This document shows, piece by piece, positions 3,977-61,552 of a stretch of DNA of 64,000 nt. The notes beneath the pieces were generated by a model that saw only the letters and a list, made by a program, of their open reading frames with translations, was not told where the DNA came from and made no database searches. The translations under genes and the position numbers were made by a program. Within the stretch, counting starts at the first letter, position 1. Each line of letters starts with the position of its first letter. The stretch lies in assembly GCA_030765535.1 (NCBI GenBank), contig JAVCCH010000025.1, forward strand, positions 7,871 to 71,870, in the 5' to 3' direction. The stretch comes from Candidatus Tenebribacter davisii. Its GTDB lineage: Bacteria; Cloacimonadota; Cloacimonadia; Cloacimonadales; TCS61.

Positions 3977-4080
3977 AATAAACCACTTTTTAAAATAATT
4001 TCTTACTTATACATTAATATTATTGACACATTGTCTTCCCCTTCCCGAATTTGCAAAAAAAAGTATATTGGAAGAATAAT

Positions 4081-9592: not shown

Positions 9593-10047
9593 TGGATAAG
9601 GTTCAAAAGTCAAAAAGATACCAACGAATCATAACACAAATCGAAGAATTAATTCAAAAAACAATTGATCCATTGGCACGTATGAGCACAATAGCAGCAA
9701 TTTTGCATCATAAATTTGATTACTATTTTTGGACTGGATTCTACCGGTTAGTTGAGGGAGAATTAACAGTTTGTTGTTATCAAGGCAGTGTAGCCTGCCT
9801 TGTTCTTGCTAAACATACAGGTGTATGCTGGGCAGCAATTGATAACAAGAAAACTCTAGTAATCCCAGATGTTAAGAAATTCTCCGGTCACATTGCCTGT
9901 GATAGCAGATCAGCTTCGGAAATTGTAATTCCTATTTGGAAAGGTAACATTATCGTGGCAGTTATGGATGTTGATAGTAAAGAGCTAAATTCTTTTGATG
10001 AAGTTGATGTTGAATATTTGGAAAAGATCGTTAAGTTGATTTTCTAA
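9592..10047 (+). CDS. msrC: GAF-domain protein, free methionine-R-sulfoxide reductase-like
   Basis: 'WTGFY', 'CYQGSVAC', 'GHIACD...SEIVIP' and 'MDVDS...FDEVD' motifs. Confidence 0.8.
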   Translation: MDKVQKSKRYQRIITQIEELIQKTIDPLARMSTIAAILHHKFDYYFWTGFYRLVEGELTVCCYQGSVACLVLAKHTGVCWAAIDNKKTLVIPDVKKFSGHIACDSRSASEIVIPIWKGNIIVAVMDVDSKELNSFDEVDVEYLEKIVKLIF

Positions 10048-10996
10048 TAATGTCTTCCTTAAAATCATTTCTACTGAAAGGTTTTCCATCTTTATAGATA
10101 ACTTTTAATTTAGGTTTTTTAATAGCATCCTTCATCAGTTCAGGATAATCTCCAAACTCACTCTTTTTAAATTCCCGAATCGGTAGTATCAACCTTCTAA
10201 ATTCTTTTACAGCTATTTCTTCTGGATTCAAACAATTCCATTTTTCCAAGGATTCCTGCTTAATAAATTGATCGATTTCAGGAAATTTATCCAGCTGGAA
10301 CTGCCAGTACAACCAGAAAAAACGATACAAAATTTTACGAAGTGGTTTAGCACTGCCTATATGCACAAAAAAGATTTGTTTTAATCTTTTAATCTTATAA
10401 AAAAATGGAAACTTTATATACTCATATTTCCCCTTTTTTATATATTTCAAACTTGGGTGCCAAGTGTGTATATAACCTTCTGAATTAGTTTCGCTACCAT
10501 TCTTTACATGAAACAGATCACCAGCAAAACTGATCGTGATAGGGTATATTAGATAGTGTTTTTTTATATTCAATTTTAACAGATATTCTCGAAGATTTTT
10601 TATGTTCCTCTCTTCTGAAGTATAGGCGATAAAATCAGAATCCCAACGGAAAATCCATCGATAAGAAGTTAGTGCAAGGGCATAATTACTGACCTTACAG
10701 ATGTCATTAGATATTTCATTAACTACAATGAGCTTGAATCTAAGTTTCTTACGTATTTTCTCAATTTCATCCAAAGTGCGATCAATTGAATTATTATTCA
10801 CGATAATCACTTCGTCAGCAAATTTATTTATTGAAAGTAAAGATTTAGCAATCCATTCTTCTTCATCTCTCACCCGAATCATTATGCTGATGCCATTTTC
10901 CCTTTTTACATTAGGTATTAAGAACTGAAATAAGCTTGCTGGATATGAAATAATAAACTTAATATTTTGCCGTAAAGTATATTTATGTTTAATCAT
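10031..10996 (-). CDS. Glycosyltransferase family 2
   Basis: 'SIMIRVRDEEEWI', 'VIIVNNNSIDRT' and DxD in 'FRWDSDF'; start at 10996 after AAGAGG, overlapping the aroB stop. Confidence 0.85.
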   Translation of the reverse strand: MIKHKYTLRQNIKFIISYPASLFQFLIPNVKRENGISIMIRVRDEEEWIAKSLLSINKFADEVIIVNNNSIDRTLDEIEKIRKKLRFKLIVVNEISNDICKVSNYALALTSYRWIFRWDSDFIAYTSEERNIKNLREYLLKLNIKKHYLIYPITISFAGDLFHVKNGSETNSEGYIHTWHPSLKYIKKGKYEYIKFPFFYKIKRLKQIFFVHIGSAKPLRKILYRFFWLYWQFQLDKFPEIDQFIKQESLEKWNCLNPEEIAVKEFRRLILPIREFKKSEFGDYPELMKDAIKKPKLKVIYKDGKPFSRNDFKEDIIRKST

Positions 10997-12014
10997 CTGA
11001 AACCTCTTGGAATAAACTAATAATTTCATTTAACTCATCAGTTCTATATATAAATAATTTTTGTAATCCTTTGAACAGGACCAGGTTAAGCTTATCATCA
11101 GCTTTCTTATCCTGTTTCAGAATAGATTCTCCATTTCTCATGATCTCAGGAAGATATTTAGAATTGAATGATACTGGAAGTGCAAATTTTTCTAATCGTT
11201 TTATTATCATTTCAAGAATCTCTTGATTAATAAAACCCCTTTTTAAACTAAATATCGCTGCGGCTCGAATACCTACAGCAACTGCAGTTCCGTGTGATAT
11301 TTCATAATTTGATATTGATTCTAAAACGTGGCCAAAAGTATGTCCCAAATTTAATAATCTTCTCGAACCTTTATCGTACAGATCATGCTCACATAGTTCA
11401 AGTTTAGTTCTTATCGCCTCCTTAATGACTCCCTCCATATTATAATCTTCTGTAAGAAGGTTTTGTAAATTTGATTGTTGTAAAAAAGACATTTTAATAA
11501 TTTCAGTAATTCCATCTTTATATTCTTTGGTGGGAAGAGTCTTAAGAAAATCTGAACTAATGATCACTTCTTCTGCCGGATAAAAACTTCCAATTCCATT
11601 TTTAATATGTTCGAAATTGAATCCAGTCTTCCCACCAATCGCAGCATCAACCATACCTAGCAACGTTGTAGGTATCAAAACTAATCGGCACCCACGTTTA
11701 TAAGTGGAAGCAGCATACGCTGCTATGTCAGTTGTAACTCCTCCTCCAATAACACAAATTATACTGTTCCTATGTACTTTATTTGTATGAAGAAATTTAT
11801 AAATTCTTTTAAGATAATCGATATTTTTAGTATCTTCATTAGCGTTGTAAATGAAAATCCTAGTTTGATCCTTGATCATCTGAAATAATTTCTCATAAAG
11901 TTTTTTTACTTTAGAATCAATAATAAAGACATGATTTTTCCCAGTTTCATTCACATTTATTAAGTTAGAAATATACTTAATATTCATATTATTATTTATA
12001 AATTTTAATTTCAT
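10989..12014 (-). CDS. aroB: 3-dehydroquinate synthase (sugar-phosphate cyclase family)
   Basis: 'IGGGVTTDIA', 'PTTLLGMVDAAIGGKTG', 'GITEIIK', 'LNLGHTFGHVLE' and 'HGTAVAVG' (metal ligands E/H/H present). Confidence 0.85.
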   Translation of the reverse strand: MKLKFINNNMNIKYISNLINVNETGKNHVFIIDSKVKKLYEKLFQMIKDQTRIFIYNANEDTKNIDYLKRIYKFLHTNKVHRNSIICVIGGGVTTDIAAYAASTYKRGCRLVLIPTTLLGMVDAAIGGKTGFNFEHIKNGIGSFYPAEEVIISSDFLKTLPTKEYKDGITEIIKMSFLQQSNLQNLLTEDYNMEGVIKEAIRTKLELCEHDLYDKGSRRLLNLGHTFGHVLESISNYEISHGTAVAVGIRAAAIFSLKRGFINQEILEMIIKRLEKFALPVSFNSKYLPEIMRNGESILKQDKKADDKLNLVLFKGLQKLFIYRTDELNEIISLFQEVSDD

Positions 12015-13476
12015 TTTTCCTGTCTTTCATCAGTATCTTAAACAAATTTTGTATTTGTTCATCTCTTCTCAAGATTAATAATACCAATACAATAATCACT
12101 GCAAATATAGCAGTTTTAATTATAAATAGATTCAAACTTAATAGTAGGCAGTTATTGATAATAGTTGCGCTCATAAGGATAAATAATCCCAAAAAGATCA
12201 GGAAAATTGGATATTTAATTTTATACAAATATGTAGCCATGGAATAGTTAAAAATTACTATGAAGAGATAAGCTACGATAGAAGCAATACCAGCTCCAAA
12301 AATTCCAAATCTAGGAATAAGAATAAAGTTTAATGCAATATTCAGAAGCGATCCCAGTAGAACTGCTAATGTAATATTTCCTGCTTTCTTTCTAATATAA
12401 AAATTAATACAAATTATATTGAATATGCCATGCAAAAATGAAGATATCACACCAGCAAAAACAATTTTATAAGATTCCAGGTAATTCGAATCAATAATAA
12501 ACCGGAAGATTTCTTGAGAATACAAAATAATCAAAGCTCCAAAAAGCGATCCAATAATTATGTAATACTTAAACATGTTTTTATTCAATTCTTGTGCTTG
12601 TGGCTGCCTGGCAATCTTCATGGCGTATGGCAAATAAACTAAGCTAATAAGCGTTACAACAAAGTGCATGATCATCCCAATTCTATAGCCGGCAGAATAA
12701 ATACCTACATCATACATGGTTTTAGCAGAAAGATATGTAAGCATATAACGATCTGAAGCCTGCAAGATAAGCATAGATATGGTTCCAGGTATCATGATAA
12801 TGCCAAATTTTAACATGGATGCTGTAATTTCTAATGAAAAATATTTTCTATCTACCGGTGGGATCTGCATTTTTTGCATTATTTTTAAAATCTGACTAAT
12901 TCCAATTAAAGAGGCAATTACTGAAGCAATTGCCAGGAAAATAAAATAATACTCAACAGAAAATTTATTCTTTAAAGAAAATAAGATTATTAATAATAAT
13001 ACAATGATGTTCTGAATAGCACTAATTATGGCGTAATGCCTTGACTTCTCCATAATATTTAGAAGACTGAGTGATATAGAAAACAACATATTAAAGAATA
13101 GAATAATAGCAATACAATAAAATAGATTGGAGTAATTAATTGAACGAAGAACTAGCTGAGAAAGCTGAACTCTATAGATGATTATCAAACTAGATAAGAT
13201 CAAACCTACAATTATTAGAACAATAAGAATTGAAGAAATTAAAGAAAATTTATAGGAATTAGAATCTACATCATAAAAATGTGAGAATAAAGCCTGGTGA
13301 ATACCAAGAAGATATATTAAACTAGCAAATGAGAAAAAGATCATCAAATTTGTATAGATAGCATATTCTTCCGGTAGCATGAAATGCGTAAAAATTGGTA
13401 ATAAGATTATTAGCAGAATTTTATTAAAAAAGTTTCCTGCAGCGTATTCTATAGTCTTCTTAAAATACTGGTTCAT
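11992..13476 (-). CDS. Wzx-type polysaccharide flippase (MOP family)
   Basis: 12-14 TM helices; 'LLPIFTHFMLPEEYAIY' and 'SDRYML...VGIYSAGYRI' motifs. Confidence 0.85.
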   Translation of the reverse strand: MNQYFKKTIEYAAGNFFNKILLIILLPIFTHFMLPEEYAIYTNLMIFFSFASLIYLLGIHQALFSHFYDVDSNSYKFSLISSILIVLIIVGLILSSLIIIYRVQLSQLVLRSINYSNLFYCIAIILFFNMLFSISLSLLNIMEKSRHYAIISAIQNIIVLLLIILFSLKNKFSVEYYFIFLAIASVIASLIGISQILKIMQKMQIPPVDRKYFSLEITASMLKFGIIMIPGTISMLILQASDRYMLTYLSAKTMYDVGIYSAGYRIGMIMHFVVTLISLVYLPYAMKIARQPQAQELNKNMFKYYIIIGSLFGALIILYSQEIFRFIIDSNYLESYKIVFAGVISSFLHGIFNIICINFYIRKKAGNITLAVLLGSLLNIALNFILIPRFGIFGAGIASIVAYLFIVIFNYSMATYLYKIKYPIFLIFLGLFILMSATIINNCLLLSLNLFIIKTAIFAVIIVLVLLILRRDEQIQNLFKILMKDRKNEIKIYK

Positions 13477-14510
13477 TTATTCAAAACACTTTTATACATT
13501 TGTAAAGTCTCTTTTGCAATCACAGACCATACAAAATTTTTCTTAATATGATCACTAAGCTGTGATGATCTTGGTTTGTTCAGTGCTGTTTGTATTGCTT
13601 TTTGAATCGAACTTACTAAATGAGGATTAGGATATTCAGCAAGATCACCAAAATATTCTTTAGTCCCCCCATTGGGTGTTATTACAATATTTGCTCCAGC
13701 AAGGCCTGCTTCCAGAGCTGATCTTCCGGGAGTTTCATATTTTGTAGGTAAAATAAAAGTATGACAAGCAGCATAGGCAGAAGCAAATAGTGGATCATCA
13801 TGATTCAACCACTCTATTAATTTAATGTTCTTGCTCTTATTAATTTCAGCTCTACACCATTCACCTTCCTGATTATGCAAAATATCAGCAATAATTACAG
13901 ATGGATGATCGATTTGCTGCAAGGCACTGATTACTTTTACTCCATTCTTCCTTTCTGCTCCCAAATGTCCTACATAAAGAATAAAATTTTTCAAACCATA
14001 TTTTTTTTGGAACAAACTAGAGCTCGCATCAGCAAAACGTTTTTCTACTCCGTTATGGATCACCTGTATTTTATTTTTATCTACTCCCATACCCTTAACT
14101 AATAGATTACCTTCATCAACTGTATTAGGAAGGACCTTTTCAGCATTATTGCATATTTGTTCAGTTATTCTGTAATCTGAAATTGAACGTACGAACAACT
14201 TATTCAAAGGTTTTTCTAAAGTCTGATATAGCTTGATTTTCCAAGCAGGATGATTACTGAATATAATCGGATTCACAACATACTTTGCACCATAAAGTTT
14301 AAGATTATTTGCAAGTGAAAAGGTGCTGGTATTAGATAAAAATATGTGAACAAGATCATCATCTGTTAGCTTCAAATTGAAATCCCACATATCGAAAAAT
14401 TTAACATCAACTCCAAGTTTTTCCAACGCTTTCTTCAAATGTAATAGTTTGTAGGTTGGACCACCACGATTCAACATTATTGATTGATAACTGGCTAAAT
14501 GTATTCTCAT
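13473..14510 (-). CDS. Glycosyltransferase family 4
   Basis: 'VIHNGV', 'ILYVGHL' and the ExxGxxxxEA motif 'YETPGRSALEA'. Confidence 0.9.
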   Translation of the reverse strand: MRIHLASYQSIMLNRGGPTYKLLHLKKALEKLGVDVKFFDMWDFNLKLTDDDLVHIFLSNTSTFSLANNLKLYGAKYVVNPIIFSNHPAWKIKLYQTLEKPLNKLFVRSISDYRITEQICNNAEKVLPNTVDEGNLLVKGMGVDKNKIQVIHNGVEKRFADASSSLFQKKYGLKNFILYVGHLGAERKNGVKVISALQQIDHPSVIIADILHNQEGEWCRAEINKSKNIKLIEWLNHDDPLFASAYAACHTFILPTKYETPGRSALEAGLAGANIVITPNGGTKEYFGDLAEYPNPHLVSSIQKAIQTALNKPRSSQLSDHIKKNFVWSVIAKETLQMYKSVLNK

Positions 14511-14522
14511 ATATCTTCCTGA

Positions 14523-16046
14523 TTATTTAAAAGTTTTTTTACTTCTTCCCGATTCATAATTATATAACATATCTCGCCAATGAAACTTACGAGTTCTTCT
14601 CAGATCTTTTTTTACTTTTACTTTTGAATGTTGTTTGAAAGAAATTTCATCAATTTTGATCTCTCTTTTTTTTGAAATTGTATATCCATCTTTTGTTGAT
14701 ATTTTAACGAATACATTTTGCGAATCATAATTTATATTAATTTTATTGTCTTTATAATTAAATTCAGGATTAAGTTTACTTCTTTCTCTCCACCATTCAC
14801 TAAATTCTTTCATACTCATGTTACAAAAATTCTTTGAATTCACATGTTGAAAGATCTTATCAAAAATGTTTAGATACTTATGATGAGGATGATGATAAAT
14901 TATAATAGGTTCTCCGGAAAGCTTTTTTTCTTCTAAAATATCTAAATAATATTGTAACATTTCATCTTCACTTAAATGCGAACGATGCAGCCTTCCTAAA
15001 CTGATTGGATGAATTGGAATTTGCAGAACATTTGAAAATTCAGTATTGCAAAATGGATAAAATGGAAGATCATCATAGTCAAGAGTAAATTCAGAAGAGT
15101 ATCTTAACTTCATTTTCTGTAGAGCTATATCCAGAGAAGTATTCCAAGCACCAAAAGGAGCAGCAAAGCCAGCAGCTTTAATCCCACATTTTTTTAACTT
15201 TTCATCCGCCCTCTGAATATTTTTGTAATTCTCCCCAATGCTATTATACACATAGTGTTTGTCACAATGTAAAGCCATTTCCTGATCTTTCATAGAAGTA
15301 TAATTTCTTATTCTTTCATCTGATTCAGTATCTAAGAACCAGGTAGCTGAAATATTATTTTTTCTGCAAATTTTATACATTTCATCAGCATCTTCAATGG
15401 AACAGAAATCAGTATCAAGCCGAAAAATAAATACATTTTTGTCAATAAATGGCTGATGCCACAAATGAACAAAAGGTAGATCTCTTTTATGATGCAGATA
15501 CTCTAAAGATAATTCAACGATCTTGCGAAGTTTACCTTTTGATACTGTGGAAACAATCTCAGAGGGAAGTTCTTTTCTCGACGTATAGAACTTCTTTCTT
15601 CTTGAATTCGTATTGAGAATCAGATCATTTACATTAAAGGGTAGAATTATGTTAATCCCTCGTTTTAATGAAGTAATTTCTAATCCTTGATCAACACTTC
15701 TCGTTTCTTTTGACTGGAAAATTTTTATCTTTGAATATATATCCACAATTCCAATTTGTGAAAAGGGAGTGCCTTGAGATGCATATAAAGAGTTAACTCG
15801 TTTCATTTTGTAAGAGAATCCATCAATTTCTGAATTATCAGCATAAAGCACTGCTCCACCAGAATCCAAAAATTTTTCAATAATTTTAGTTTCTTCGGAA
15901 TTATGAGTTTCAGTAATAATTATCACTGAAAATTCATTGAGTAAAATCGGTTTTAATAAAGAGAATTTTGAAAAACTTACACCTATCTGTTTAAGAACTA
16001 TCTCCCATCCAGGTTTTATGTAATCGATTCCAATTTTCAAGTTCAT
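14523..16046 (-). CDS. Polysaccharide deacetylase (NodB-fold) family protein
   Basis: 'FRLDTDF' (D-x-D), 'ALHCDKH' (HxxxH) and 'GFAAPFG' motifs. Confidence 0.65.
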   Translation of the reverse strand: MNLKIGIDYIKPGWEIVLKQIGVSFSKFSLLKPILLNEFSVIIITETHNSEETKIIEKFLDSGGAVLYADNSEIDGFSYKMKRVNSLYASQGTPFSQIGIVDIYSKIKIFQSKETRSVDQGLEITSLKRGINIILPFNVNDLILNTNSRRKKFYTSRKELPSEIVSTVSKGKLRKIVELSLEYLHHKRDLPFVHLWHQPFIDKNVFIFRLDTDFCSIEDADEMYKICRKNNISATWFLDTESDERIRNYTSMKDQEMALHCDKHYVYNSIGENYKNIQRADEKLKKCGIKAAGFAAPFGAWNTSLDIALQKMKLRYSSEFTLDYDDLPFYPFCNTEFSNVLQIPIHPISLGRLHRSHLSEDEMLQYYLDILEEKKLSGEPIIIYHHPHHKYLNIFDKIFQHVNSKNFCNMSMKEFSEWWRERSKLNPEFNYKDNKININYDSQNVFVKISTKDGYTISKKREIKIDEISFKQHSKVKVKKDLRRTRKFHWRDMLYNYESGRSKKTFK

Positions 16047-17050
16047 TTAAAATCCTCAATTATTTTTCTAAGCTGTTTTTCTCTGCTTTTCAAAGAAAAA
16101 TTATCCAGGATATGTTTTCTGAATATTTTACCGCTCTTCATGCTTAGTGCTTCTTGAATTGCTTTAGCTGTGTCCTTGGGATCATTAAATGGAACATAGA
16201 AAGCTGATTCTCCAGCAACTTCAGGTAAAGCTCCTTTACTTGTAACAACAGGGATACATTCACAGAGCATTGCTTCAGCAAGCGATATTCCAAAACCTTC
16301 GTGAGCAGATACCTGCAAATACACCTTTGCTTCCTGCAAATACTTCAACAATGTATCATCTTTAACAAAACCAGTAAAAGCAACGTTGTCAGGAGCAATT
16401 GACCTGAGATATTCTATTGAATCATCAATATGTTTCCCAATCAATATGAATTCAATACCAGGAAGAAACTCAGCACTTTTTACAAATGTTTCCAATCCTT
16501 TACGCTGTAAATTTTCTCTGGTTATATTACCAACTGTTACTACAATATTTTTCTTATTTCCAATGGGATAAAATAAATCTTTTTGAACTCCATTATAGAC
16601 TAATTTCAGTTGTTTAGTTACAAAATTATTCTCAATCTCTTGCCTATTTGAACGCGAAACTGCAAGTGTAAGATCTGCATTCCTGAGTATGTATTTTACT
16701 TTCTTGACGTTTCGTGGATTTAGCATTCCACCATAATCAATCTCAGGAACGTGTGCAACTTCATAACCACCAACCACAACAATGCTTTTCTTATGCAATA
16801 ATCGGGCGAAAATTACAGCTATAAAAGCTGGAAGTTCAGCAAACCAACAATAGATGAAGTCTGTTTTACATGTTTCGATAAAAATATTGCAAGCTAAGAT
16901 TACCAATTTAAATATATTTCTACTCTTTGGTATTTGAATTGTTTTAACAATTGCAAATTTATTTAATATTTTCCTGTCTTTGCGCACAAAAGTAGAATTG
17001 TAGGCTGAAAGGAACAGTATGGTTTTCTTCATATTAGAATTATCTGACAA
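16043..17050 (-). CDS. Glycosyltransferase family 4
   Basis: 'VYNGV', 'RKGLETF' and 'HEGFGISLAEAM'; the start may be 17032. Confidence 0.9.
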   Translation of the reverse strand: MSDNSNMKKTILFLSAYNSTFVRKDRKILNKFAIVKTIQIPKSRNIFKLVILACNIFIETCKTDFIYCWFAELPAFIAVIFARLLHKKSIVVVGGYEVAHVPEIDYGGMLNPRNVKKVKYILRNADLTLAVSRSNRQEIENNFVTKQLKLVYNGVQKDLFYPIGNKKNIVVTVGNITRENLQRKGLETFVKSAEFLPGIEFILIGKHIDDSIEYLRSIAPDNVAFTGFVKDDTLLKYLQEAKVYLQVSAHEGFGISLAEAMLCECIPVVTSKGALPEVAGESAFYVPFNDPKDTAKAIQEALSMKSGKIFRKHILDNFSLKSREKQLRKIIEDFK

Positions 17051-19418
17051 GAACTATTTTCCCTTTTGAAGTTTGCCCTTCAGCGGCTGAAACAACATAG
17101 AAATAAATCCCTGAACTACATTTTTTCCCAGCTTTATTCAGTCCATCCCAGCTAAATTGTTCATATATATCTTTTTCCATTTCAATCACCAAGATTCCTT
17201 CCAGATCAAAGATTCTGCAATAAGTATTCCCCGCAGGCATAGTAATGGATCCTACATTCTCAATCCGCAAAAGTTCACCATTCTCAGGATAATAAGGATT
17301 CGGATATACTACAGTATCAAAAAGCTCAGTTTCCTGATTCATATCAGCGGAAATACCAATTTCTACGGAATTCATTCCGGAATTTGTTCCAATATATAAT
17401 GTTCCGGTTTTCGCCTCATAAGCAAAAGTGGTAATTGTATTTGAAATCAATGGACTATTATCAGTAGTTATATTCGTGAATTTATCTCTACTGGTATCAA
17501 ATATCGTAATTCCAGCATTCTGAGTTCCAATCCATAGCATCCCAAAGGGATCTGTAAAAAGAGCTGTCGGATAGGTCGGTATTGAACCGTAAAGTCTTTC
17601 CTGCCCTTCATAATACCAGTATTCAGGATCGGGGATATCCGCATTCCAGAACCACTCATTATCACTCCAGACTTTCTTCTTAATTGTTGTACCAAACCAG
17701 AACCAATCTATTCCATCGAACATGAAAAGCCCCGTGCCAGAAGCTACCCAAACTTCTTCAATTCCATCTACAATTCTAGATTCCATTGCATGGATCAAAC
17801 CAGTTCGCAATTCAGATGAAGGTGGGTAAATCCAATCTTGACCATTAGTAACGGGATCAGTATCATTATCCCAATATTGTACTCCTTTATTAAGAGTTCC
17901 AAAAAATCTATAATTTTCTCCAATTAAGGACATAATATTATATTGGTTTTCATCAAATTCTGTTTGGAAAGTGTGAGAAATAGAGTCATTATTTACAGTT
18001 TCTGCAATGGCAACTCCACCCATATATGAAATCCACATCCTATCATTTTCTGGAGTTAGCTTAGTTGTATAAGATGAAGAGAGCCCCGTGAGAAATGAAA
18101 ACTCATCCTGACCTTCATCTAGAATACTAATTCCACCATTACCAGGTGTAATAAACTGCCAACAGGAAAACCATTTTCTATTGCTACTATCGATAGCAAT
18201 ATCATATACGTTATTATTTCTTAATGCTGGGTATTTTTTAGATGTATAATTTTCCCAAATTTCCCCATCAAAACTACAAACACCTTTGGTTCCTCTTCCT
18301 AATTGCTGTAATCCATAATAACCTGATGCTAACCATAATTTATTGCCATAATCAATCTCTATATCGGTTATTAAATTAGCTGAAATACAATTTGCTTTCA
18401 CATTTGTATCCCATTCATTTTCAGAAAGAAGAAATAATCCCTCTCCCCAGGTAAAAACGGATATTTGATCATTAATCTCTCTAAATCCTTTAATTTTTGT
18501 TGTGGTTAATCCGTTTTCATTTTTTTCCCAAGTATCTAAATTTCCATTTGCAGAAATTCTTGCAACAGCGACATCCATAGTATCTGTAAGAACCAATCTA
18601 TCTAAATCCCAATTACCGTAACTATACCATAAATTTATTTGATCATCAACAAAAACTGGATAAATTGATTTACCTTCATCTATCAATATTGCTTGAGAAA
18701 AATCATATAAATTTTCAGAAAATAAAATACCGTTATCGGTACCAATAGCTGTTACCCCTAATGAAATTGATATTGAAGAAATATTATTGCTTGGTAAAAT
18801 TGAGTTATCAATATTTATATGATTCCATGATTGAATTGTTTCTAAAGAATCTATATGGACAAAATCTAATCCTGTATTAGTCCCAAAAAAGATATATCCT
18901 TCTTGGGTTAACTGCATAGAAGTAACATTATTAGCAGAAAGTCCATTTTCTATATTATAATTATTTAAAAGAAGTGGGAATGGAAAATCTGCTTCATCTT
19001 TGAAACAACTTACTCCAAATTTAGTAGCTACAAATATAAGAGAATCATTATGGGTAATAACATTCACAATATTTGATTGTAAACCTAATGTTTCAGTAAG
19101 TGGTGTTAAAAATTTGTTATCTTTGATCCTGTTAATACCATTCCCGGCAGTTCCAACCATTATTTCATTTGACCCTTCCAGATAATCAAGGGCACGAATA
19201 TCATTACTATCTAATCCATCAATTGTTGTTAGAGTTTCTCCAAATGAATTATTGTTAAGGTGAAAATTCACTAATCCACCCCAAGTAGCAAAATACAACT
19301 CATTGTTATTTTCTAATACATCAAAAATATAAGTTGTGTTTGTATATGTTTTCCAATTTTTAAGTGCAAATAACCCTGTTGCAATTATCAACATAACTAT
19401 AACTAACTTGTTTCTCAT
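17040..19418 (-). CDS. PorZ-like double beta-propeller protein with a PorZ-type C-terminal domain
   Basis: Signal peptide; 'WKTYTN...LYFATWGGL...TTIDGLDSNDIRAL' two-component-regulator propeller repeats; CTD 'VYPNPY.P...WDGLNKAGKKCSSGIYFY...KGKIVLVR'. Confidence 0.7.
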   Translation of the reverse strand: MRNKLVIVMLIIATGLFALKNWKTYTNTTYIFDVLENNNELYFATWGGLVNFHLNNNSFGETLTTIDGLDSNDIRALDYLEGSNEIMVGTAGNGINRIKDNKFLTPLTETLGLQSNIVNVITHNDSLIFVATKFGVSCFKDEADFPFPLLLNNYNIENGLSANNVTSMQLTQEGYIFFGTNTGLDFVHIDSLETIQSWNHINIDNSILPSNNISSISISLGVTAIGTDNGILFSENLYDFSQAILIDEGKSIYPVFVDDQINLWYSYGNWDLDRLVLTDTMDVAVARISANGNLDTWEKNENGLTTTKIKGFREINDQISVFTWGEGLFLLSENEWDTNVKANCISANLITDIEIDYGNKLWLASGYYGLQQLGRGTKGVCSFDGEIWENYTSKKYPALRNNNVYDIAIDSSNRKWFSCWQFITPGNGGISILDEGQDEFSFLTGLSSSYTTKLTPENDRMWISYMGGVAIAETVNNDSISHTFQTEFDENQYNIMSLIGENYRFFGTLNKGVQYWDNDTDPVTNGQDWIYPPSSELRTGLIHAMESRIVDGIEEVWVASGTGLFMFDGIDWFWFGTTIKKKVWSDNEWFWNADIPDPEYWYYEGQERLYGSIPTYPTALFTDPFGMLWIGTQNAGITIFDTSRDKFTNITTDNSPLISNTITTFAYEAKTGTLYIGTNSGMNSVEIGISADMNQETELFDTVVYPNPYYPENGELLRIENVGSITMPAGNTYCRIFDLEGILVIEMEKDIYEQFSWDGLNKAGKKCSSGIYFYVVSAAEGQTSKGKIVLVR

Positions 19419-19422
19419 TAGA

Positions 19423-20799
19423 TTACCTCCCCTTTCTAGACAATATCGTACTGATAGTCTTTAATAAAATATTAAAATCTAAAAGAACTGACCTTTTTTT
19501 TATATAATAAAGATCATATTGAAGTTTCTTTAATGTATCTTCATAAGATGGAGAATGATATTCATTAGATGTTTGATCCCATCCTGTTATCCCTGGTTTA
19601 ATTAGCATTCTTTCATTATAATACGGAATTTGCGTTTCTAACACTTTAACTAATTCTGGTCGTTCGGGTCGTGGACCAATGAAGCTCATTTCCCCTTTTA
19701 AAACATTAATTATTTGAGGAGTTTCATCAAATCTGATTTTACGTAAGAATGAGCCAAAATGAGTAATCCGAATATCATTTTTTTCTGTTGGTGTTGAATT
19801 ATAACCATTTAGCATAGTTCTAAATTTGTAAATAACAAAATTTTTATCATTTTTACCAATTCTATTTTGTGTATAGAATATTTTCCCTTTGCTTTCCAAT
19901 TTAATGATAATTCCTGCAATTATCCAAAATGGAATGGAAACAATAAGGATAATCAATGACAAAATGATATCAAAAATACGTTTAAATAAATCGTAGACTT
20001 TTTTATTTCCTTCAGTAAGATTTTCCAAAAACCAAGATTTATTAATAATCTCTATAGGAACTTTTCCAGTTACATTCTCATAAAAATGGTGTAAACTAAG
20101 AAAGTTTATTTTTAAAGGAAGACATTTGATCAAAATACTACTAAGCTTCTCTGAAGATGAAGGATCAATTACAAGAACTATATTAGTAATCTTATATTTT
20201 TTCGCTAAATCAATCAAATCTGAATCAATATAGTAAATATCAATTTCTGGAAATTGTTTTTTTAACTCATTATTATTATCTTTTATTATGTAGAGAAATT
20301 TAATCTCAAATCCTAAATTTGCTATTTTATCAAACTCTTTTATCATTTGTTCAACTTGAGAATTGTAACCAATTATTGCAATCTGTTCTTTAGGAATATA
20401 GTCTTTAAGTATCCAGTTAAAAATATTTCTCCATAAGAAAAATAATATCGCATATACAATAATAAAAAGAACTAAATTAGTTTTAGGTTCAATTAGAATA
20501 TTTGGTATTATATAGAAAAATACTGCTGAGAATAATCCACAGATCAAAAAACTTCGTAGAGTTAAGTAGTAAAATTTACGGTTATTTACAGCATAATTAA
20601 AGTTATATAATCCTGAAAGATTAAACACAAATAACCAAAATATAAAGAGAATACTGAATGGCTTTAGATGAATTAATACATAACTTTGTTCAGGAAGAGA
20701 AAAAGATCTAATAATTAATGTTAAATATAGAGCCCCATATAATATTACTATATCAATTAGTAGCAAAAGCATTTTTCTAAACTTATTATTCATGATCAC
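19423..20799 (-). CDS. Polyprenyl glycosylphosphotransferase (WcaJ/WbaP-like initiating transferase)
   Basis: 4 N-terminal TMs; 'KRIFDII', 'KFRTM', 'DETPQIINVLKGEMSFIGPRPE', 'KPGITGWDQ' and 'DLYYI'. Confidence 0.93.
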   Translation of the reverse strand: MIMNNKFRKMLLLLIDIVILYGALYLTLIIRSFSLPEQSYVLIHLKPFSILFIFWLFVFNLSGLYNFNYAVNNRKFYYLTLRSFLICGLFSAVFFYIIPNILIEPKTNLVLFIIVYAILFFLWRNIFNWILKDYIPKEQIAIIGYNSQVEQMIKEFDKIANLGFEIKFLYIIKDNNNELKKQFPEIDIYYIDSDLIDLAKKYKITNIVLVIDPSSSEKLSSILIKCLPLKINFLSLHHFYENVTGKVPIEIINKSWFLENLTEGNKKVYDLFKRIFDIILSLIILIVSIPFWIIAGIIIKLESKGKIFYTQNRIGKNDKNFVIYKFRTMLNGYNSTPTEKNDIRITHFGSFLRKIRFDETPQIINVLKGEMSFIGPRPERPELVKVLETQIPYYNERMLIKPGITGWDQTSNEYHSPSYEDTLKKLQYDLYYIKKRSVLLDFNILLKTISTILSRKGR

Positions 20800-21907
20800 C
20801 CATTATTTTGTTATAGACTTCAATATATTTTCGTGAAAAATCAATGATATTATACTTATCTTTAACTAACTTATATGAATTTACTCCCCATGCTTCTAGC
20901 CTTGCTCTTTCATCAGGAAGAGATAATAAAACCACTGCTAATCTGTCAACGTCATTAATAGGAACGAGAATTCCGTTAAAATCAGATACAAGTTCATTAT
21001 TCCCTTTTACATCTGAAGTAACGATTGGCAGTTTCATAGACATAGCTTCTAAGATAGAGATCGATAATCCCTCAGCAGTTGAAAAAAGTAAATAAACATT
21101 AAACATAACTAACCATTCTTCAACGTTATTTTGCCACCCAGGAAAAAAAATATTTTCTTCGAGATCTTCTGTCCGAACCATTTGCTTACATTTTTCTAAT
21201 AATTTCCCATCACCGATGAAATAAAAAACTATTTTATGATTAGTTTTACATACATCGATTGCTACATTAATAGTATTAATAATGTTTTTAATTTTTTCAA
21301 ATCTTAATATACTACCAATAACAAATACATCTTTTTTTATCTTTGAAGTCCCTTTTATTGTATTTTCATTTAACTTTATACCATTAGCAATTGTAATTGC
21401 TTTGAATGCTTTCGTTATATTGTTTTTAATTGCATATTCACGTTCATAATTGTTAACAAAGATCACATAATCACTGAAAGAAGAAACAAACTTTTCTAAA
21501 ACTTGATAGAAAAAACGTATAGGTGGTGATTGTGCATAATGAAACGCGAATCCATGTACGGTATGTACAACTTTGGGAACTCCTGCTATTCGCGCTGCAA
21601 TTCTTCCGAGAAACCCTGGTTTTGATGAATGCGTGTGAACGATATCAAATTTTTCTTTCTTAAATATTCTTATTAATTTTATCAAAGCAACAAAATCCAT
21701 TAAAGAAATATTACGTCTAAAAGATTTAAGCGGAATGTAATTATAACCTGATTCTAGAACTTTTTCCACCAGAGGACCACCTGGTTTAGATATCACGTAA
21801 ATTTCATACTTATTCTTATCTAATGATCCTAAAATTTTTAACATAACATTCTGAGCACCGGAAAGTAATGGCAATAATTGAATATGAACTATTTTAATTC
21901 TTCCCAT
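20786..21907 (-). CDS. Glycosyltransferase family 4
   Basis: 'DIVHTHSSKPGFLGR', 'HTVHGFAF' and 'EGLSISILEAM'. Confidence 0.92.
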   Translation of the reverse strand: MGRIKIVHIQLLPLLSGAQNVMLKILGSLDKNKYEIYVISKPGGPLVEKVLESGYNYIPLKSFRRNISLMDFVALIKLIRIFKKEKFDIVHTHSSKPGFLGRIAARIAGVPKVVHTVHGFAFHYAQSPPIRFFYQVLEKFVSSFSDYVIFVNNYEREYAIKNNITKAFKAITIANGIKLNENTIKGTSKIKKDVFVIGSILRFEKIKNIINTINVAIDVCKTNHKIVFYFIGDGKLLEKCKQMVRTEDLEENIFFPGWQNNVEEWLVMFNVYLLFSTAEGLSISILEAMSMKLPIVTSDVKGNNELVSDFNGILVPINDVDRLAVVLLSLPDERARLEAWGVNSYKLVKDKYNIIDFSRKYIEVYNKIMGDHE

Positions 21908-23169
21908 TAATTTTCTAACCTTTCTTCTACAAAATTAAGAAATTCTATTGTTTGATTTTCTCTACTGAACTTATTACTATATTCTCGTTTAATTTTTTTA
22001 TTTTTAAGTGTTTCAATAAGCATTAAAAAATTCTTAGCGATCATTTCAACATCTTCCATATTACAAATAAGGTTCTGTTTATTTTGGATTAATATCTCTG
22101 CAGCTTCCCCATCCGGTGGTACCATAGCAAGGATCTCCTTACCGCTGCGCAGATATTCAAACAGCTTACCAGTAAGCACTCCCTTACCTTTATGAGAGGC
22201 AATGAATAATAGTAGAGCATCACAATTCATAAGTGATTTTATAGCTTCTTTATGCTCTATTTGAGGATTGAGCTTTATCATGTCTGATACTTCTGAATTA
22301 TTTATATAATTTACTGTCTCAGCATAATAATTACCGGTAAATTCAATAATTATATTATTGGGCAACTGATCACGGGACTTTAATAATTCTAAAGCATCAA
22401 TAAAGAACTTTGGAGTTCTGTATCCATAAAAATTACCAATATATTTAATGATAAATTTTTCATTTTTCCTTATCACAAAATTGGTAAAATCATCTGTATC
22501 CCATCCATTATAAATTACCTTGATTCTACTTCTTAGTGTTTCTCCAAACTCATCTATAAGATCATCTTTCATTGTTTTACTAACTACAGTTATCGTAGAA
22601 GCAAAATTCAGAATCTTATTTTCCCAATGTACAGCATGTATTTTATGCAACTTCGAAAAAAAAGTGATATATGGATTTAGTGTCCAGTGATCACGGTAAT
22701 CTATAATTAATGGCGTCTTCATCTTCTTTGCCAGTTTATAAGCTGCCACACCACTTGTATATGGCCCCATAGTCGCCATGACCGCATCATATTCATTTTT
22801 TTTATTAAGTTTTTTCCCAGCTTTTATTACAAAAGGTAACCAGCCAATTTTTTCATCAATAAAGAAAATATTCCGAATGATTTTTTTATACTTTTCCGGT
22901 GTTTTAAAATATACTGCTCTATTAGTTTTTGTCTTGGATATTTTCTTCAAGATAGACATTGGATCAAATGATGATGTTCTGATAATCCTGCGTGCAACAT
23001 CTTCTTTCAATAACTTCTGATCCATGGAATGAAAAACTATATCTTTTACTGTTATCACATTAGTAGAGACCCCGCACCGTTCAAGATATTTTACTAATTT
23101 TACAGGACGTTGAACTCCAGGACCACCTAGAGGTGGATAAAAGTAGGCAATTAATAATAATTTTTTCAT
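21907..23169 (-). CDS. Glycosyltransferase family 4-like
   Basis: 'AYFYPPLGGPGVQR', 'IDYRDHW' and 'GKLFEYL'. Confidence 0.88.
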   Translation of the reverse strand: MKKLLLIAYFYPPLGGPGVQRPVKLVKYLERCGVSTNVITVKDIVFHSMDQKLLKEDVARRIIRTSSFDPMSILKKISKTKTNRAVYFKTPEKYKKIIRNIFFIDEKIGWLPFVIKAGKKLNKKNEYDAVMATMGPYTSGVAAYKLAKKMKTPLIIDYRDHWTLNPYITFFSKLHKIHAVHWENKILNFASTITVVSKTMKDDLIDEFGETLRSRIKVIYNGWDTDDFTNFVIRKNEKFIIKYIGNFYGYRTPKFFIDALELLKSRDQLPNNIIIEFTGNYYAETVNYINNSEVSDMIKLNPQIEHKEAIKSLMNCDALLLFIASHKGKGVLTGKLFEYLRSGKEILAMVPPDGEAAEILIQNKQNLICNMEDVEMIAKNFLMLIETLKNKKIKREYSNKFSRENQTIEFLNFVEERLEN

Positions 23170-24881
23170 TCCTCATCCTTGATTAGCGATCTTTGTTTAA
23201 GAACAACTTCTATTTTAGAATCTAACTTGATATTAGAAAAATGAATTGTATTTTCTTTAATTTCAGCGTCAGCATGTTTAACTTGATCAATCTCGAAATT
23301 ACCAAATATGCTTATTGTAAATTTATCCGTTTGAGCTGGAAAATACAAATAAAATCTATCTTCACTTTCAAAGATCTCAATACTCTCTCTTTTCTTCCAC
23401 CATTGAGCTATCTGCATAAAGGTAGCTATAAAGACATTTTTAGGTTTGATCTCTTCTAAAGTATAATTTAACAGCTGCTTATTATATGATATTTCATCGA
23501 AATTTGAAATTGAATAATTAAAAGAAATAAAACCATTAACACATTCAATTGATTTAATTAAATGATCTACTATTTCTTGTGCATTTTCATAAGATAACAT
23601 ACTTGATTTTGAAAGTTTAAGATGATCATCAAAAAAGATCATCGGTAATTCTAACGAATGCCACCCAAAACTGCTTCTTAAATCACTACCGTGTGAACCA
23701 AATTGGTAGAAAGGAAATCCCAATCCATTGAGAAATCCACTTTTTTGATGAAATCCAATTGAGGAATTGTAAATAAATCCATTTTTTCGGTGAAATTCAT
23801 TAGTAAGTCTTGGATCGTAGCAGAAATGATTATGGCGCACACCTATCAATTCTTTGCCGAGTAACTTAGTTAACTGATCTTTTTGTTTGTGAAGTATATC
23901 TTGTTTCCCTGAGTTTACTGAAGCTAAAAGTGCTATTTCGTTTCCTTTGGTATAAATGTTCCTGATCTCTTTCTGTATATCTCTATTATGGATAGAATAA
24001 TCAATGTCTTTTTTTAGAATCGATTCCGTACCGAAAAAAGAGGTACTGCTTATTTTGTGTAAATTCTCAATTTGATCAATTATCTCAAAATTCCAATATT
24101 CTTCTATATTCGTCAGGAGATATTTTATTTTACTTAAAAATCTATGAAATACATATTTGATCTTATAAAAAATAAGAATATCTTCAAATGTACTGCTTAT
24201 CATTCTACCTAATGACCACTTGTGTAATTTATCAATATTGTAAGAAAAAGAAGCAGCAAAATTCTCAGCAGATGGCCAGTATTCTTTTTTAACTAAAAAG
24301 ACCTTACCATTCCTTTCTAATGAATCCTGAATGCAGCGTTCAATTAACCATAACAACATATTCACATAAGGTTCTTGATGAAAAGACTGAAATGGAACTA
24401 CATCATCTAAAAGCCAGCCATGATCATCTCTTTTTACAGCTTCGATCGTTTGTACAGTTTCCAAATTAAAGAGGATATTACCAACAACATCAAATTTATA
24501 AATACCGTAAAATAAATCTTCATTATTATAATATTGAATGGGTGCATTGAGTTCATTATCAGATATTACCGGTATTTTTCGTTTTAGATTAATTATTTCA
24601 GTTTTCTTTTTAATTTTTTCAAGTGTTAAGGCTTTTTGCTGGAATAGATCTGCACATATCGGTATATAGAATAAAATCTTATCCATGGCAAGAATGTAAG
24701 CTTCCTTTATTGATGGTTCAATCAAACCGTAATAGAATAGAATATCATTTTTTTGTAATTGATCTATTTTATGAATATACTTAAATTCATAACCAAGCGT
24801 ATTAAAAATAAAATCAAAAGTGAATTTGATCTTATTTTCATATCTTTTTAATTTACTATCTACATATATAGCTATCATCAA
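23166..24881 (-). CDS. Polysaccharide-deacetylase-fold protein with degenerate metal motifs
   Basis: First gene of the glycan operon; 'EPYVN', 'GVRHNHF', 'YNSSIGF...GF..G..FPF' and 'LELPMIFFD' resemble the family, but the THDVD- and LH-equivalent motifs read SYNID and LL. Confidence 0.6.
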   Translation of the reverse strand: MMIAIYVDSKLKRYENKIKFTFDFIFNTLGYEFKYIHKIDQLQKNDILFYYGLIEPSIKEAYILAMDKILFYIPICADLFQQKALTLEKIKKKTEIINLKRKIPVISDNELNAPIQYYNNEDLFYGIYKFDVVGNILFNLETVQTIEAVKRDDHGWLLDDVVPFQSFHQEPYVNMLLWLIERCIQDSLERNGKVFLVKKEYWPSAENFAASFSYNIDKLHKWSLGRMISSTFEDILIFYKIKYVFHRFLSKIKYLLTNIEEYWNFEIIDQIENLHKISSTSFFGTESILKKDIDYSIHNRDIQKEIRNIYTKGNEIALLASVNSGKQDILHKQKDQLTKLLGKELIGVRHNHFCYDPRLTNEFHRKNGFIYNSSIGFHQKSGFLNGLGFPFYQFGSHGSDLRSSFGWHSLELPMIFFDDHLKLSKSSMLSYENAQEIVDHLIKSIECVNGFISFNYSISNFDEISYNKQLLNYTLEEIKPKNVFIATFMQIAQWWKKRESIEIFESEDRFYLYFPAQTDKFTISIFGNFEIDQVKHADAEIKENTIHFSNIKLDSKIEVVLKQRSLIKDEE

Positions 24882-33785: not shown

Positions 33786-33801
33786 TTTTTCCATCCTTGA
33801 A

Positions 33802-57686: not shown

Positions 57687-57987
57687 ATTTCCTCCTAATT
57701 TAGGAATATGCAATTTTTCTTTTTTATGTACATGTGTATAAATAATTAATCCGATTCTACTGTCAATCTAAAATTTTCTTTCTATAAAGACCTAAGTTAT
57801 TCTATTATGCAATATTTAATCCATATTTGTTATTTTTTCCTTAAATAAGCATAGTTTAGTACGTAATAACTTAATACGAAATACATTATACTGATAATAG
57901 ATTATAAGTCCTTATCCTATAAGCTTCATATTTACATTGTAATATGACATAAATTGGGTATTTTCTGACATAAATGTCGTGAAATCA

Positions 57988-61008: not shown

Positions 61009-61016
61009 GATTCTCC

Positions 61017-61466
61017 TTATCCTATGATTTCTCCACCAAATATCAACACTAACAAAAAGCGCACTACTACAGCAGCAATAACCATAATTGAAAGCGTTTT
61101 TATAATACCTTGTTTTTCCATTGCATTAGCAATAAGACCAGGGATAATAAATCCAATGACATTAACAGAATAATCTGTTGAAAAATGTGCAAATACACTG
61201 TACTGCCTGGTCATCCAACCAATAACAAATCCAAGCAGAACGGTAATAACCATTCGCCTTCTTCCGTAAATAAACATGAACTTCCCAAGAATTTTGACAA
61301 TGATGAGCACTACAATACTAATTGATAATGTAGCTAAAATTGTAATCGGTTGATGTAAATACATTGCTACATAACCTGCCACCACAATTCCGCCGGCAGC
61401 TGCTCCAAAAGTCTCTAAAAAGAACAGACTGATCAACACTCCTAACCCAATCGCGACTTCAAACAT
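61017..61466 (-). CDS. pgsC: Poly-gamma-glutamate biosynthesis protein C (CapC)
   Basis: 'GGIVVAGYVA', 'YGRRR' and 'IGFIIPGLIAN...KQG'. Confidence 0.92.
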   Translation of the reverse strand: MFEVAIGLGVLISLFFLETFGAAAGGIVVAGYVAMYLHQPITILATLSISIVVLIIVKILGKFMFIYGRRRMVITVLLGFVIGWMTRQYSVFAHFSTDYSVNVIGFIIPGLIANAMEKQGIIKTLSIMVIAAVVVRFLLVLIFGGEIIG

Positions 61467-61530: not shown

Positions 61531-61552
61531 TTTTCCTCTTTTAAATAAATAA

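Follow-up and report, generated by a model that had tools for sequence, protein, structure and literature searches.

The locus described here raises the question of why a propeller protein with a T9SS CTD should be encoded in the midst of glycosyltransferase genes. It lies within a 64,000-nucleotide stretch of the Candidatus Tenebribacter davisii genome, referred to below as the window, in a phylum (Cloacimonadota) that is abundant in anaerobic digesters. To our knowledge, evidence for a role of PorZ in glycolipid delivery comes from a single species, Porphyromonas gingivalis, whose porZ gene is not in an LPS locus, and anchor chemistry is known for just a few oral Bacteroidota. We consider it probable that the gene encodes the Cloacimonadota PorZ, a glycan-presenting subunit of the attachment machinery, and that the glycan made by the surrounding operon is the cargo anchor, by the mechanism proposed below.

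Operon organization around the PorZ-like gene

Eleven tightly packed genes occupy 10031-24881 on the minus strand, from X571 through a GT2 glycosyltransferase gene, and their intergenic gaps of -41 to +12 nt suggest that they are co-transcribed as one operon. From the first gene to the last they are:

23166-24881 (-): X571, a 571-aa cytoplasmic protein, operon gene 1 (NF053580 VimE match, CE4 fold search)
21907-23169 (-): GT4a, a GT4 glycosyltransferase of 420 aa, core (Pfam, synteny)
20786-21907 (-): GT4b, a GT4 glycosyltransferase of 373 aa, phylum-wide core (Pfam Glycos_transf_1 and Glyco_transf_4; synteny)
19423-20799 (-): predicted initiating polyprenyl-phosphate sugar-1-phosphate transferase, Bac_transf, WbaP/WcaJ-like, 458 aa (PF02397, 207 bits)
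17040-19418 (-): PorZ-like protein, 792 aa (open frame, profile matches, AF2 model, Foldseek)
16043-17050 (-): GT4c, a GT4 glycosyltransferase of 335 aa (profile match; follows PorZ in roughly half of related loci)
14523-16046 (-): X507, a 507-aa second polysaccharide-deacetylase-like protein (PF01522 and PF22537, E 1.4e-4)
13473-14510 (-): GT4d, a GT4 glycosyltransferase of 345 aa (profile match, synteny)
11992-13476 (-): Wzx-type flippase, Polysacc_synt, 494 aa, multi-pass membrane protein (PF01943, 57.7 bits; TM prediction)
10989-12014 (-): AroB-like 3-dehydroquinate-synthase-family protein, 341 aa (TIGR01357, 277.7 bits, cut-off 305; TIGR04425, 265 bits)
10031-11029 (-): GT2 glycosyltransferase, 332 aa, final operon gene in this genome (PF00535, 36.7 bits)

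The initiating transferase gene, with no second Bac_transf gene detected in the genome, encodes a protein with five predicted TM segments that also matched TIGR03025 (EPS_sugtrans) at 345.7 bits, over the cut-off of 295.55. It stands directly upstream of the PorZ-like gene with a gap of 4 nt, and GT4c follows directly downstream with an 11-nt overlap. The open frame, its domains and its neighbours bear out the initial annotation, which had placed a propeller protein with a T9SS CTD between the initiating transferase and a GT4. The WbaP-type initiator, four GT4s, one GT2 and Wzx together correspond to a feature of the Wbp/Vim-type gene set. The operon GT4s had no specific NCBIfam match, and a VimF-like identity for them was dropped on that account. 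The AroB-like protein, whose gene accompanies the operon in many related loci, may be a housekeeping aroB product or a sugar-phosphate cyclase.

An operon of this composition could also make a general surface polysaccharide (an LPS O-unit, capsule or S-layer glycan), with PorZ present through envelope co-regulation or sitting on the glycan, and with cargo not covalently joined to it. Initiator, Wzx and GT4s are all of generic kinds, with no equivalog cut-off reached; a VimA signature was found nowhere in the genome and WbpA/B/D/E genes neither in the operon nor in the window; and the operon's downstream half differs from locus to locus. We nevertheless hold this explanation to be unlikely. Elsewhere in the genome, on contig C20, a separate cluster of Wzx, Wzy_C, epimerase and GT4 genes is the better candidate for bulk polysaccharide, and the operon itself, in which neither ligase nor polymerase was found, is consistent with the synthesis of a single short unit.

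Sequence and predicted fold of the PorZ-like protein

The PorZ-like frame opens with an ATG that has GGAGG just ahead of it, and the encoded protein is laid out as a signal peptide (the N-terminus is a signal-like helix), two propellers at residues ~20-345 and ~350-690, and a T9SS CTD at ~700-792. Its Reg_prop repeats scored 33.3 bits (cut-off 20.4) and it matched TIGR04183 Por_Secre_tail at 25.3 (cut-off 23), with a weak match to PF21544 PorZ_N_b_propeller (E 5.6e-4). The sole full-length NCBIfam match was NF052228 T9SS_PorZ (E 2.6e-43), which was split into three segments that take in both model ends and reached 148.5 bits, short of the curated equivalog cut-off of 260. A phmmer comparison with P. 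gingivalis PorZ (5M11) gave E 5.6e-13, and a genome search found the gene in single copy. The AF2 model (pLDDT 90.2, pTM 0.86) returned 5M11 as its best Foldseek match over the whole chain (E 1.7e-29, TM 0.64/0.67), whereas HTCS sugar-sensor propellers reached a TM of only 0.31. The DSSP strand count is consistent with 7+7 blades and a 7-stranded CTD, and as modelled the protein follows the PorZ 'easy chair' plan of two seven-bladed beta-propellers and a canonical 7-stranded CTD. Family match, predicted fold and single copy make the product very probably a PorZ orthologue, in line with the initial annotation, which had seen a PorZ-like protein here.

The protein ends in KIVLVR, with a terminal R that is invariant in 42 homologues, and the final residue of P. 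gingivalis PorZ is likewise an R, R776 (PMC5121618). This tail had been described as unlike those of cargo, and the genome agrees: K is the last residue in 112 of its 119 CTD-bearing ORFs and R in only 3, the total of 119 having been obtained with an iterated HMM (other profile searches gave upwards of 50 matches to the CTD alone). Three cargo-type CTD genes previously located in the window are all present:

32499-33818 (-): T9SS cargo-type CTD protein, propeller, adjoining a TonB-dependent receptor, tail KCILLK (PF18962, 27.7 bits)
55689-57713 (-): T9SS cargo-type CTD protein, 674 aa, tail RMLLMK (PF18962, FlgD_ig)
63826-64000 (-): C-terminal CTD part of a cargo protein, 1387 aa, continuing past the window end, tail KMILLK (profile match, tail)

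The linker at residues 681-700 of the PorZ-like protein is modelled at pLDDT 86-89, and this value, together with the unusual tail, hints that the CTD is of a retained type, with PorU not cleaving the structured linker.

Synteny across Cloacimonadota and beyond

Exactly one PorZ was found in 115 of 121 Cloacimonadota genomes (45 of 46 genera), and an initiating transferase lies directly upstream of it in all 65 of the 65 loci compared, down to 27% identity, with genes overlapping or 0-4 nt apart in most loci. The gene order first noted in a single genome is thus a phylum-wide linkage. A WecA/MraY-type PF00953 transferase occupies the initiator position in 59 of the 65, and these comparisons indicate that the initiator family was exchanged while its position beside PorZ was kept. 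The order X571, one or two GT4s, initiator and then PorZ recurs in 46 of 46 loci. In the deepest family, f13, X571 is absent and the genes form one operon, X507-GT4d-Wzx-GT4a-GT4b-WecA-PorZ; beside PorZ, roughly half of the loci lack the operon's downstream half. No published account of porZ inside a glycan operon was found in the open-access literature searched. The near-universal placement of PorZ suggests that the anchor sugar is the product of this operon, and an adjacency that persists to such divergence and outlasts a swap of initiator exceeds usual co-regulation, which counts further against a general surface polysaccharide.

Gene order can also be inherited by accident, here through one insertion of PorZ into a conserved operon in the phylum ancestor with no functional link. 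All of the loci come from one phylum, and hence share common ancestry, and three PorZ homologues outside Cloacimonadota have housekeeping neighbours only and are not beside glycan genes. Such an accident is highly improbable, given that the adjacency outlasted rearrangement of the remaining operon in family f13, replacement of the initiator and extensive sequence divergence, and that the genes are so closely spaced in most loci.

In 120 of 121 genomes, PorZ and PorU either occur together or are both missing. The six PorZ-less genomes, all of one genus, also lack PorU, and all that they keep is a solitary X571-like paralogue, around which the fetched 20 kb contain neither GT4 nor WecA genes; because this co-absence is confined to one clade, it represents a single evolutionary event, in reduced genomes. 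A KSB1 PorZ homologue sits with PorU, PorV, a PMT_2 gene and a GT2/Bac_transf fusion. These patterns bear on whether the PorZ-like protein could instead be ordinary T9SS cargo, acting as a surface lectin or as a polysaccharide assembly or length-control factor with no part in attaching other cargo. Such a role would be compatible with the propeller type shared with HTCS sugar sensors, the missed PorZ equivalog cut-off and a genome search that did not detect PorQ. We find it quite improbable, as the global three-domain arrangement is PorZ-like and not sensor-like, genomes throughout the phylum have just a single copy, loss coincides with loss of PorU, the tail is unlike cargo tails and shares its final R with P. 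gingivalis PorZ, and the KSB1 homologue adjoins PorU and PorV.

T9SS components in the genome

Searches for the rest of the T9SS found SprA as one 2020-aa frame (TIGR04189, 500 bits summed, exceeding the cut-off of 200), PorV (PF19572, 76 bits, over its cut-off but short of the NCBIfam PorV equivalog cut-off) and a PorU-like C25 sortase, whose 377.5 bits do not reach the NCBIfam equivalog cut-off in this genome; across the phylum, 90 of 121 genomes have a PorU that exceeds it. The same genome searches gave no match for GldM (TIGR03517) or for the PorP/PorQ family (PorP_SprF, PF11751), both of which were also missing from the control genomes. GldK (TIGR03525) matched six FGE-sulfatase proteins through the generic FGE-sulfatase domain part alone, and these were rejected as a gldKLMN locus, their neighbours being beta-lactamase-like and TolB-like genes, Kelch, pyrB and similar. 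A hydrophobicity and TM-pattern screen for a gene pair encoding PorL-like (2 TM) and PorM-like (1 TM) proteins yielded no convincing candidate. The initial annotation had inferred a T9SS-like attachment system outside Bacteroidota; PorU-like, PorV and SprA proteins support this, with GldK partial and GldM and PorP/PorQ undetected in the genome, but the finding is not new per se, since Cloacimonadota are already listed among FCB phyla that may have T9SS (PMC11285876).

Deacetylase-like proteins of the operon

P. gingivalis assembles its A-LS linker on Und-PP with WbaP, GtfC, GtfF and VimF, and the linking sugar requires the deacetylase VimE (PMC13086638, PMC7468200). The single NCBIfam match of X571 is NF053580 VimE, weak at 31.7 bits against a cut-off of 440; the same model matched 14 of 31 X571 orthologues (best E 5.6e-11), and 21 of the 31 contain DUF7033. 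Sequence searches of X571 and X507 against the PDB gave no useful match, and X571 was placed by fold search alone: Foldseek neighbours of its AF2 model (pLDDT 87.6) are the CE4 deacetylases 3rxz, 1z7a and 3cl6 and the deacetylase domain of NDST1. As modelled, X571 has a CE4 deacetylase fold and is distantly VimE-like, with no invariant His in its alignment, so that a canonical CE4 metal site is putative. The fold, taken with VimE as the sole NCBIfam match, adds support to the reading of the operon product as an anchor glycan. An X507 orthologue, at locus L031, matches PF01522; X571 and X507 were considered as paralogues and this was rejected (BLASTP E 0.032 over just 82 residues). As separate observations, the X571 orthologues of two genomes were flagged '1 TGA inside', and at locus L030 a faint Acetyltransf_6 gene lies upstream of X571. 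A search for a VimA/FemAB-type transferase (PF13480) gave no match in the genome, where 10 of 14 control genomes matched, and Wbp/Vim chemistry can therefore not simply be copied over to this system.

Proposed mechanism and implications

In the mechanism that we propose, the initiating transferase (Bac_transf here, WecA-type in most of the phylum) would place the first sugar-phosphate onto undecaprenyl phosphate, and two to four GT4s, joined in this genome by the GT2, would lengthen the chain to a short oligosaccharide. X571 and/or X507, as CE4-type deacetylase-like proteins, could then remove the N-acetyl group of an amino sugar to give a free amine, after which Wzx would flip the unit to the periplasmic face and the unit would be attached to a lipid carrier, possibly via the separate Wzx/Wzy_C cluster. 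At the cell surface, PorZ would bind the glycan and hand it to the PorU-like C25 sortase, which would cut the CTD from the ~119 cargo proteins and link the new C-terminus to the glycan. PorZ would thereby bind the glycan of its own operon, as gene order suggests, and the de-N-acetylated sugar amine would presumably serve as the nucleophile. The initial annotation had cast the operon as maker of the anchor glycan; the PorZ fold, the T9SS genes, the synteny and the X571-VimE match all speak for this, and the covalent anchor role is the part that we infer.

A further and more tentative suggestion, which we lean against without dismissing, is that this is a stripped-down form of T9SS attachment. 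All that anchoring requires would then come from one operon: a short oligosaccharide assembled on Und-PP, a CE4 deacetylase or a pair of them to uncover the sugar amine that the sortase uses as nucleophile, and PorZ to carry the glycan, with no VimA-added amino acid and possibly no PorQ; this arrangement could be ancestral and the scattered P. gingivalis genes derived. The nucleophile so suggested is simpler than the amino-acid-tagged sugar of Porphyromonas. More broadly, the phylum-wide linkage of porZ, initiator, GT4 and deacetylase-like genes provides independent comparative evidence for a dedicated, specific PorZ glycan and identifies a compact, clonable group of genes expected to produce the anchor in Cloacimonadota. 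The target of T9SS cargo attachment outside Bacteroidota thereby becomes a directly testable question.

Comparison with known systems

With the Bacteroides HTCS sensors BT4663, BT3049 and BT4673 (4A2M, 3V9F, 3OTT) the PorZ-like protein shares the Reg_prop double beta-propeller, with significant sequence and fold matches, and in these sensors that module binds oligosaccharides. The domain arrangement differs, as the low TM indicates: transmembrane and kinase parts are absent, and a T9SS CTD replaces the Y_Y_Y domain.

The likeness to P. gingivalis PorZ (PG1604), which binds A-LPS and then PorU (PMC8545088), extends to length, the two beta-propellers, the 7-stranded CTD and the C-terminal Arg, and both genes are single-copy and accompanied by PorU, PorV and SprA. 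The two proteins share only ~16% identity, the Cloacimonadota gene lies inside a glycan operon, and of the PorU-PorV-PorZ-PorQ attachment complex of P. gingivalis, PorQ was not detected in this genome.

The closest parallel to the operon as a whole is the Wbp-Vim A-LS pathway of P. gingivalis and T. forsythia, with which it shares a dedicated initiator, a handful of GTs, Wzx and, as predicted here, a deacetylase of CE4 type; both are also without a polymerase of their own and have a separate Wzy-type cluster elsewhere. The Wbp-Vim pathway uses WbaP, whereas most Cloacimonadota have a WecA-type initiator; it includes the VimA aminoacyl transferase, of which no counterpart was found in this genome; and its VimE is only faintly similar to X571, which has an extra DUF7033 domain. 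The Wbp-Vim genes are scattered in P. gingivalis, whereas here the corresponding genes are gathered with porZ in one operon.

Results

The open reading frame at 17040-19418 (minus strand) runs uninterrupted for 792 codons behind a GGAGG ribosome-binding site and begins with a signal-peptide-like helix. Its sole full-length family match is NCBIfam NF052228, "T9SS anionic LPS delivery protein PorZ" (E 2.6e-43), at 148.5 bits against an equivalog cut-off of 260. Reg_prop repeats score 33.3 bits (cut-off 20.4), PF21544 PorZ_N_b_propeller matches weakly (E 5.6e-4), and the T9SS C-terminal sorting domain (CTD) exceeds the TIGR04183 cut-off (25.3 bits against 23). A phmmer search of PDB sequences matched P. 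gingivalis PorZ (5M11) at E 5.6e-13 and also, at E 3.9e-17, a hybrid two-component sensor from Bacteroides. The AlphaFold2 model, computed with 42 homologues as input (pLDDT 90.2, pTM 0.86), has a strand pattern compatible with two seven-bladed propellers plus a seven-stranded CTD. Its top Foldseek match in the PDB is 5M11 over the whole chain (E 1.7e-29, TM 0.64/0.67), whereas sugar-sensor propellers, with E-values near that of 5M11, reach a TM of just 0.31, so the placement of the three domains is PorZ-like rather than sensor-like. Tails ending in K (KhhhhK or KChhhK) are carried by 112 of the 119 CTD-bearing ORFs of the genome; the PorZ-like protein ends in an R that is invariant among the 42 homologues, and R776 is the last residue of P. 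gingivalis PorZ (PMC5121618). Elsewhere in the genome the PorZ model matches only the CTDs of other genes, and the PorZ-like gene is thus single-copy. The closest named relatives of its product are from Ca. Tenebribacter. Sequence and predicted fold together make orthology to PorZ very likely even though the equivalog score is not reached, with CTD retention and glycolipid binding as putative properties.

The initial annotation had described this gene as lying amid glycan genes, a description borne out by the ORF, its domains and its neighbours, and the three cargo-type CTD genes reported elsewhere in the window are present. Eleven minus-strand genes, each overlapping its neighbour or at most 12 nt from it, extend from 24881 to 10031 in the order X571, GT4a, GT4b, Bac_transf initiator, PorZ-like, GT4c, X507, GT4d, Wzx, AroB-like, GT2, where GT4a to GT4d are GT4 glycosyltransferases. 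No polymerase lies within the operon, and the Bac_transf gene, X571 and X507 each occur once in the genome.

Principal features of the porZ operon
23166-24881, minus strand: X571, 571-aa product of the first gene
19423-20799, minus strand: initiator, a Bac_transf phosphoglycosyl transferase (TIGR03025, 345.7 bits, over cut-off)
17040-19418, minus strand: PorZ-like protein, 792 aa
14523-16046, minus strand: X507, 507-aa deacetylase-like protein

X571 is predicted to be cytoplasmic, with neither a signal peptide nor a TM segment. VimE is its sole NCBIfam match (31.7 bits for the window protein); the same model is matched by 14 of 31 X571 orthologues, with a best E of 5.6e-11, and 21 of the 31 contain DUF7033. 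Its AlphaFold2 model (pLDDT 87.6) contains a CE4 polysaccharide-deacetylase core with structural matches to 3rxz (E 8.6e-8, target TM 0.66), 1z7a, PuuE and the N-deacetylase domain of NDST1. No His is invariant in the X571 alignment, and its deacetylase activity is therefore only putative. X507 matches Polysacc_deac_1 and WbmS-like families weakly, and one X507 orthologue has a recorded PF01522 match. In two Cloacimonadaceae-type genomes the X571 orthologue (G003:C1:749312-750976 and G111:C66:815-2479) was flagged as containing one in-frame TGA, a candidate internal stop, recoding site or terminal stop.

Contig C160, which contains the window, belongs to a 3.0-Mb Cloacimonadota MAG of 95% completeness (G000). 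A search of this genome for secretion components recovered PorU-like, PorV and SprA genes. SprA (2020-aa frame, 500 bits) and PorV (395 aa, 76 bits against Pfam PorV) are over their cut-offs; the PorU-like C25 protein (1086-aa frame) scores 377.5 bits against a cut-off of 420, its alignment to the model starting only near position 355. PorU-like proteins of the window's family, f1, are ~1030-1100 aa long (C63:19681-22902 in G000) and likewise align only from near position 355, those in the rest of the phylum are ~1290 aa and matched from position 3, and f1 seems to have lost or replaced the N-terminal third of PorU. GldK was matched solely through its generic FGE-sulfatase part, with unrelated adjoining genes, and GldM and PorP/PorQ-family profiles gave no match in this genome or in the control genomes, so that this negative is uninformative. 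Neither PorQ nor the PorKLMN motor and ring was thereby recovered. At C97:453-7054 in G000, the gene after PorV encodes a 1065-aa M6-peptidase-like protein with an unusual CTD tail, FAIIN, and three small DUF5683 proteins with RF ends come next. The adjacency of PorV and the M6/CTD gene recurs in a KSB1 locus, L032, and these neighbours of PorV could be attachment-complex parts standing in for PorQ.

Across 121 genomes spread evenly over the phylum, exactly one PorZ-like gene is found in 115, representing 45 of 46 genera; PorU is found in 114, over cut-off in 90. The six PorZ-less genomes (G002, G005, G008, G017, G023 and G065) are closed, 1.5-1.6 Mb in size and all of one genus, g40 of family f12; PorU is missing from them too, and CTD candidates are almost absent. 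This genus apparently lost the T9SS entirely, PorZ and PorU having disappeared together in a single event in a reduced-genome clade. The g40 genomes keep a lone, distant X571 relative of 460-485 aa, with no GT4 or WecA genes in the 20 kb retrieved around it.

Synteny was compared with the window genes at eighty species-level loci with 10-kb flanks. The linkage of porZ to an initiating transferase proved to be phylum-wide: a polyprenyl-phosphate sugar-1-phosphate transferase lies directly upstream of PorZ at every one of the 65 loci whose upstream sequence is long enough, and the order X571, one or two GT4s, initiator, PorZ is found at 46 of 46 loci with at least 5.2 kb upstream. The initiator is of WecA/MraY type (PF00953) at 59 of the 65 loci and Bac_transf at six, the window having Bac_transf. 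Its family has been exchanged with its position kept, a non-orthologous displacement (window 19423-20799 against loci L028-L112), and lineages probably differ in the sugar that begins the glycan; a WecA-type initiator would put a HexNAc at the reducing end. About half of the loci have a GT4c-X507-GT4d-(rSAM)-Wzx-(PMT_2)-AroB-like block downstream of PorZ. In f13, the deepest family (~27% identity), X571 is absent and the operon reads X507-GT4d-Wzx-(PMT_2)-GT4a-(GT2)-GT4b-WecA-PorZ, with PorZ last. The examined loci of sampled PorZ-bearing genomes retain GT4(s), initiator and PorZ, and every examined PorZ cluster with a sufficiently long flank includes X571 or X507 as a CE4-like deacetylase gene.

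Outside the phylum, one KSB1 homologue sits with a GT2/Bac_transf fusion, a PMT_2 gene, PorU and PorV, and three other distant homologues have housekeeping neighbours only. PMT_2, a GT-C, ArnT-like membrane glycosyltransferase, occurs in the PorZ operon at L028, L037, L046, L055 and L118 and directly upstream of PorZ at L032. It was not found by tblastn in the window's operon or genome, and could act at a periplasmic stage of glycan transfer.

Three further loci of the window were recorded.

4051-7451, plus strand: adjoining pair resembling archaeal-type GatE/GatD (a 673-aa GatB_N-domain protein and a 460-aa protein with GatD_N and asparaginase domains), which would be unusual for a bacterium
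46591-52029, minus strand: 1812-aa fusion of Ser/Thr protein kinase, TPR repeats, GAF, HisKA and HATPase_c, followed by a 957-aa TPR protein
57988-63022, minus strand: capsule-type cluster of CapC and a CapB-like Mur-ligase with a C-terminal RRM_1 RNA-recognition motif, then three ORFs without family matches

The capsule-type cluster may make poly-gamma-glutamate, a polymer proposed for Antarctic Cloacimonadota MAGs (PMC8542988).

Discussion

The operon presented here joins a T9SS attachment subunit to a dedicated glycan pathway, an arrangement kept across a whole non-Bacteroidota phylum. A T9SS in Cloacimonadota is itself not new: the phylum has been counted among the FCB phyla that may possess one (PMC11285876), and a MAG study mentions a CTD for surface attachment (PMC8542988); within the literature searched, we found no description of the operon linkage of porZ to glycan genes. 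The initial annotation proposed that the operon makes the anchor glycan for CTD proteins of a T9SS-like system. The predicted PorZ-like fold, the presence of PorU-like, PorV and SprA genes, and the synteny favour that reading, which is partly supported; several equivalog cut-offs are not reached. Gene content, predicted folds and linkage lead us to infer, with somewhat better than even confidence, that the operon makes the glycan presented by PorZ to PorU. More speculatively, a de-N-acetylated amino sugar could be the source of the amine used by the sortase, a role compatible with the gene content.

P. gingivalis cargo is attached through an amide bond to the linking sugar that forms the tip of a pentasaccharide, the linking saccharide A-LS. 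WbaP, a dedicated initiator, assembles A-LS on Und-PP together with GtfC, GtfF and VimF; the linking sugar requires the deacetylase VimE and VimA, which adds Ser, and A-LS is joined to O-polysaccharide via Wzy and to lipid A-core via WaaL (PMC7468200; PMC13086638). PorZ binds A-LPS, and binds PorU when A-LPS is present (PMC8545088). The Cloacimonadota pathway resembles this system in its dedicated initiator, few glycosyltransferases, putative CE4-type deacetylase and flippase, and in having no polymerase of its own and a second Wzy-type cluster elsewhere. In G000 that second Wzx cluster (C20:4679-15938) combines UDP-GlcNAc 2-epimerase, several GT4s and an AsnB-like amidotransferase with the only Wzy_C (O-antigen ligase/polymerase family) gene of the genome, which is clipped by the contig end. 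Unlike P. gingivalis, the genome has no Acetyltransf_6/VimA-type gene by a profile search that matched the family in 10 control genomes, most of the phylum starts the glycan with a WecA-type enzyme, and the Cloacimonadota operon carries porZ in cis.
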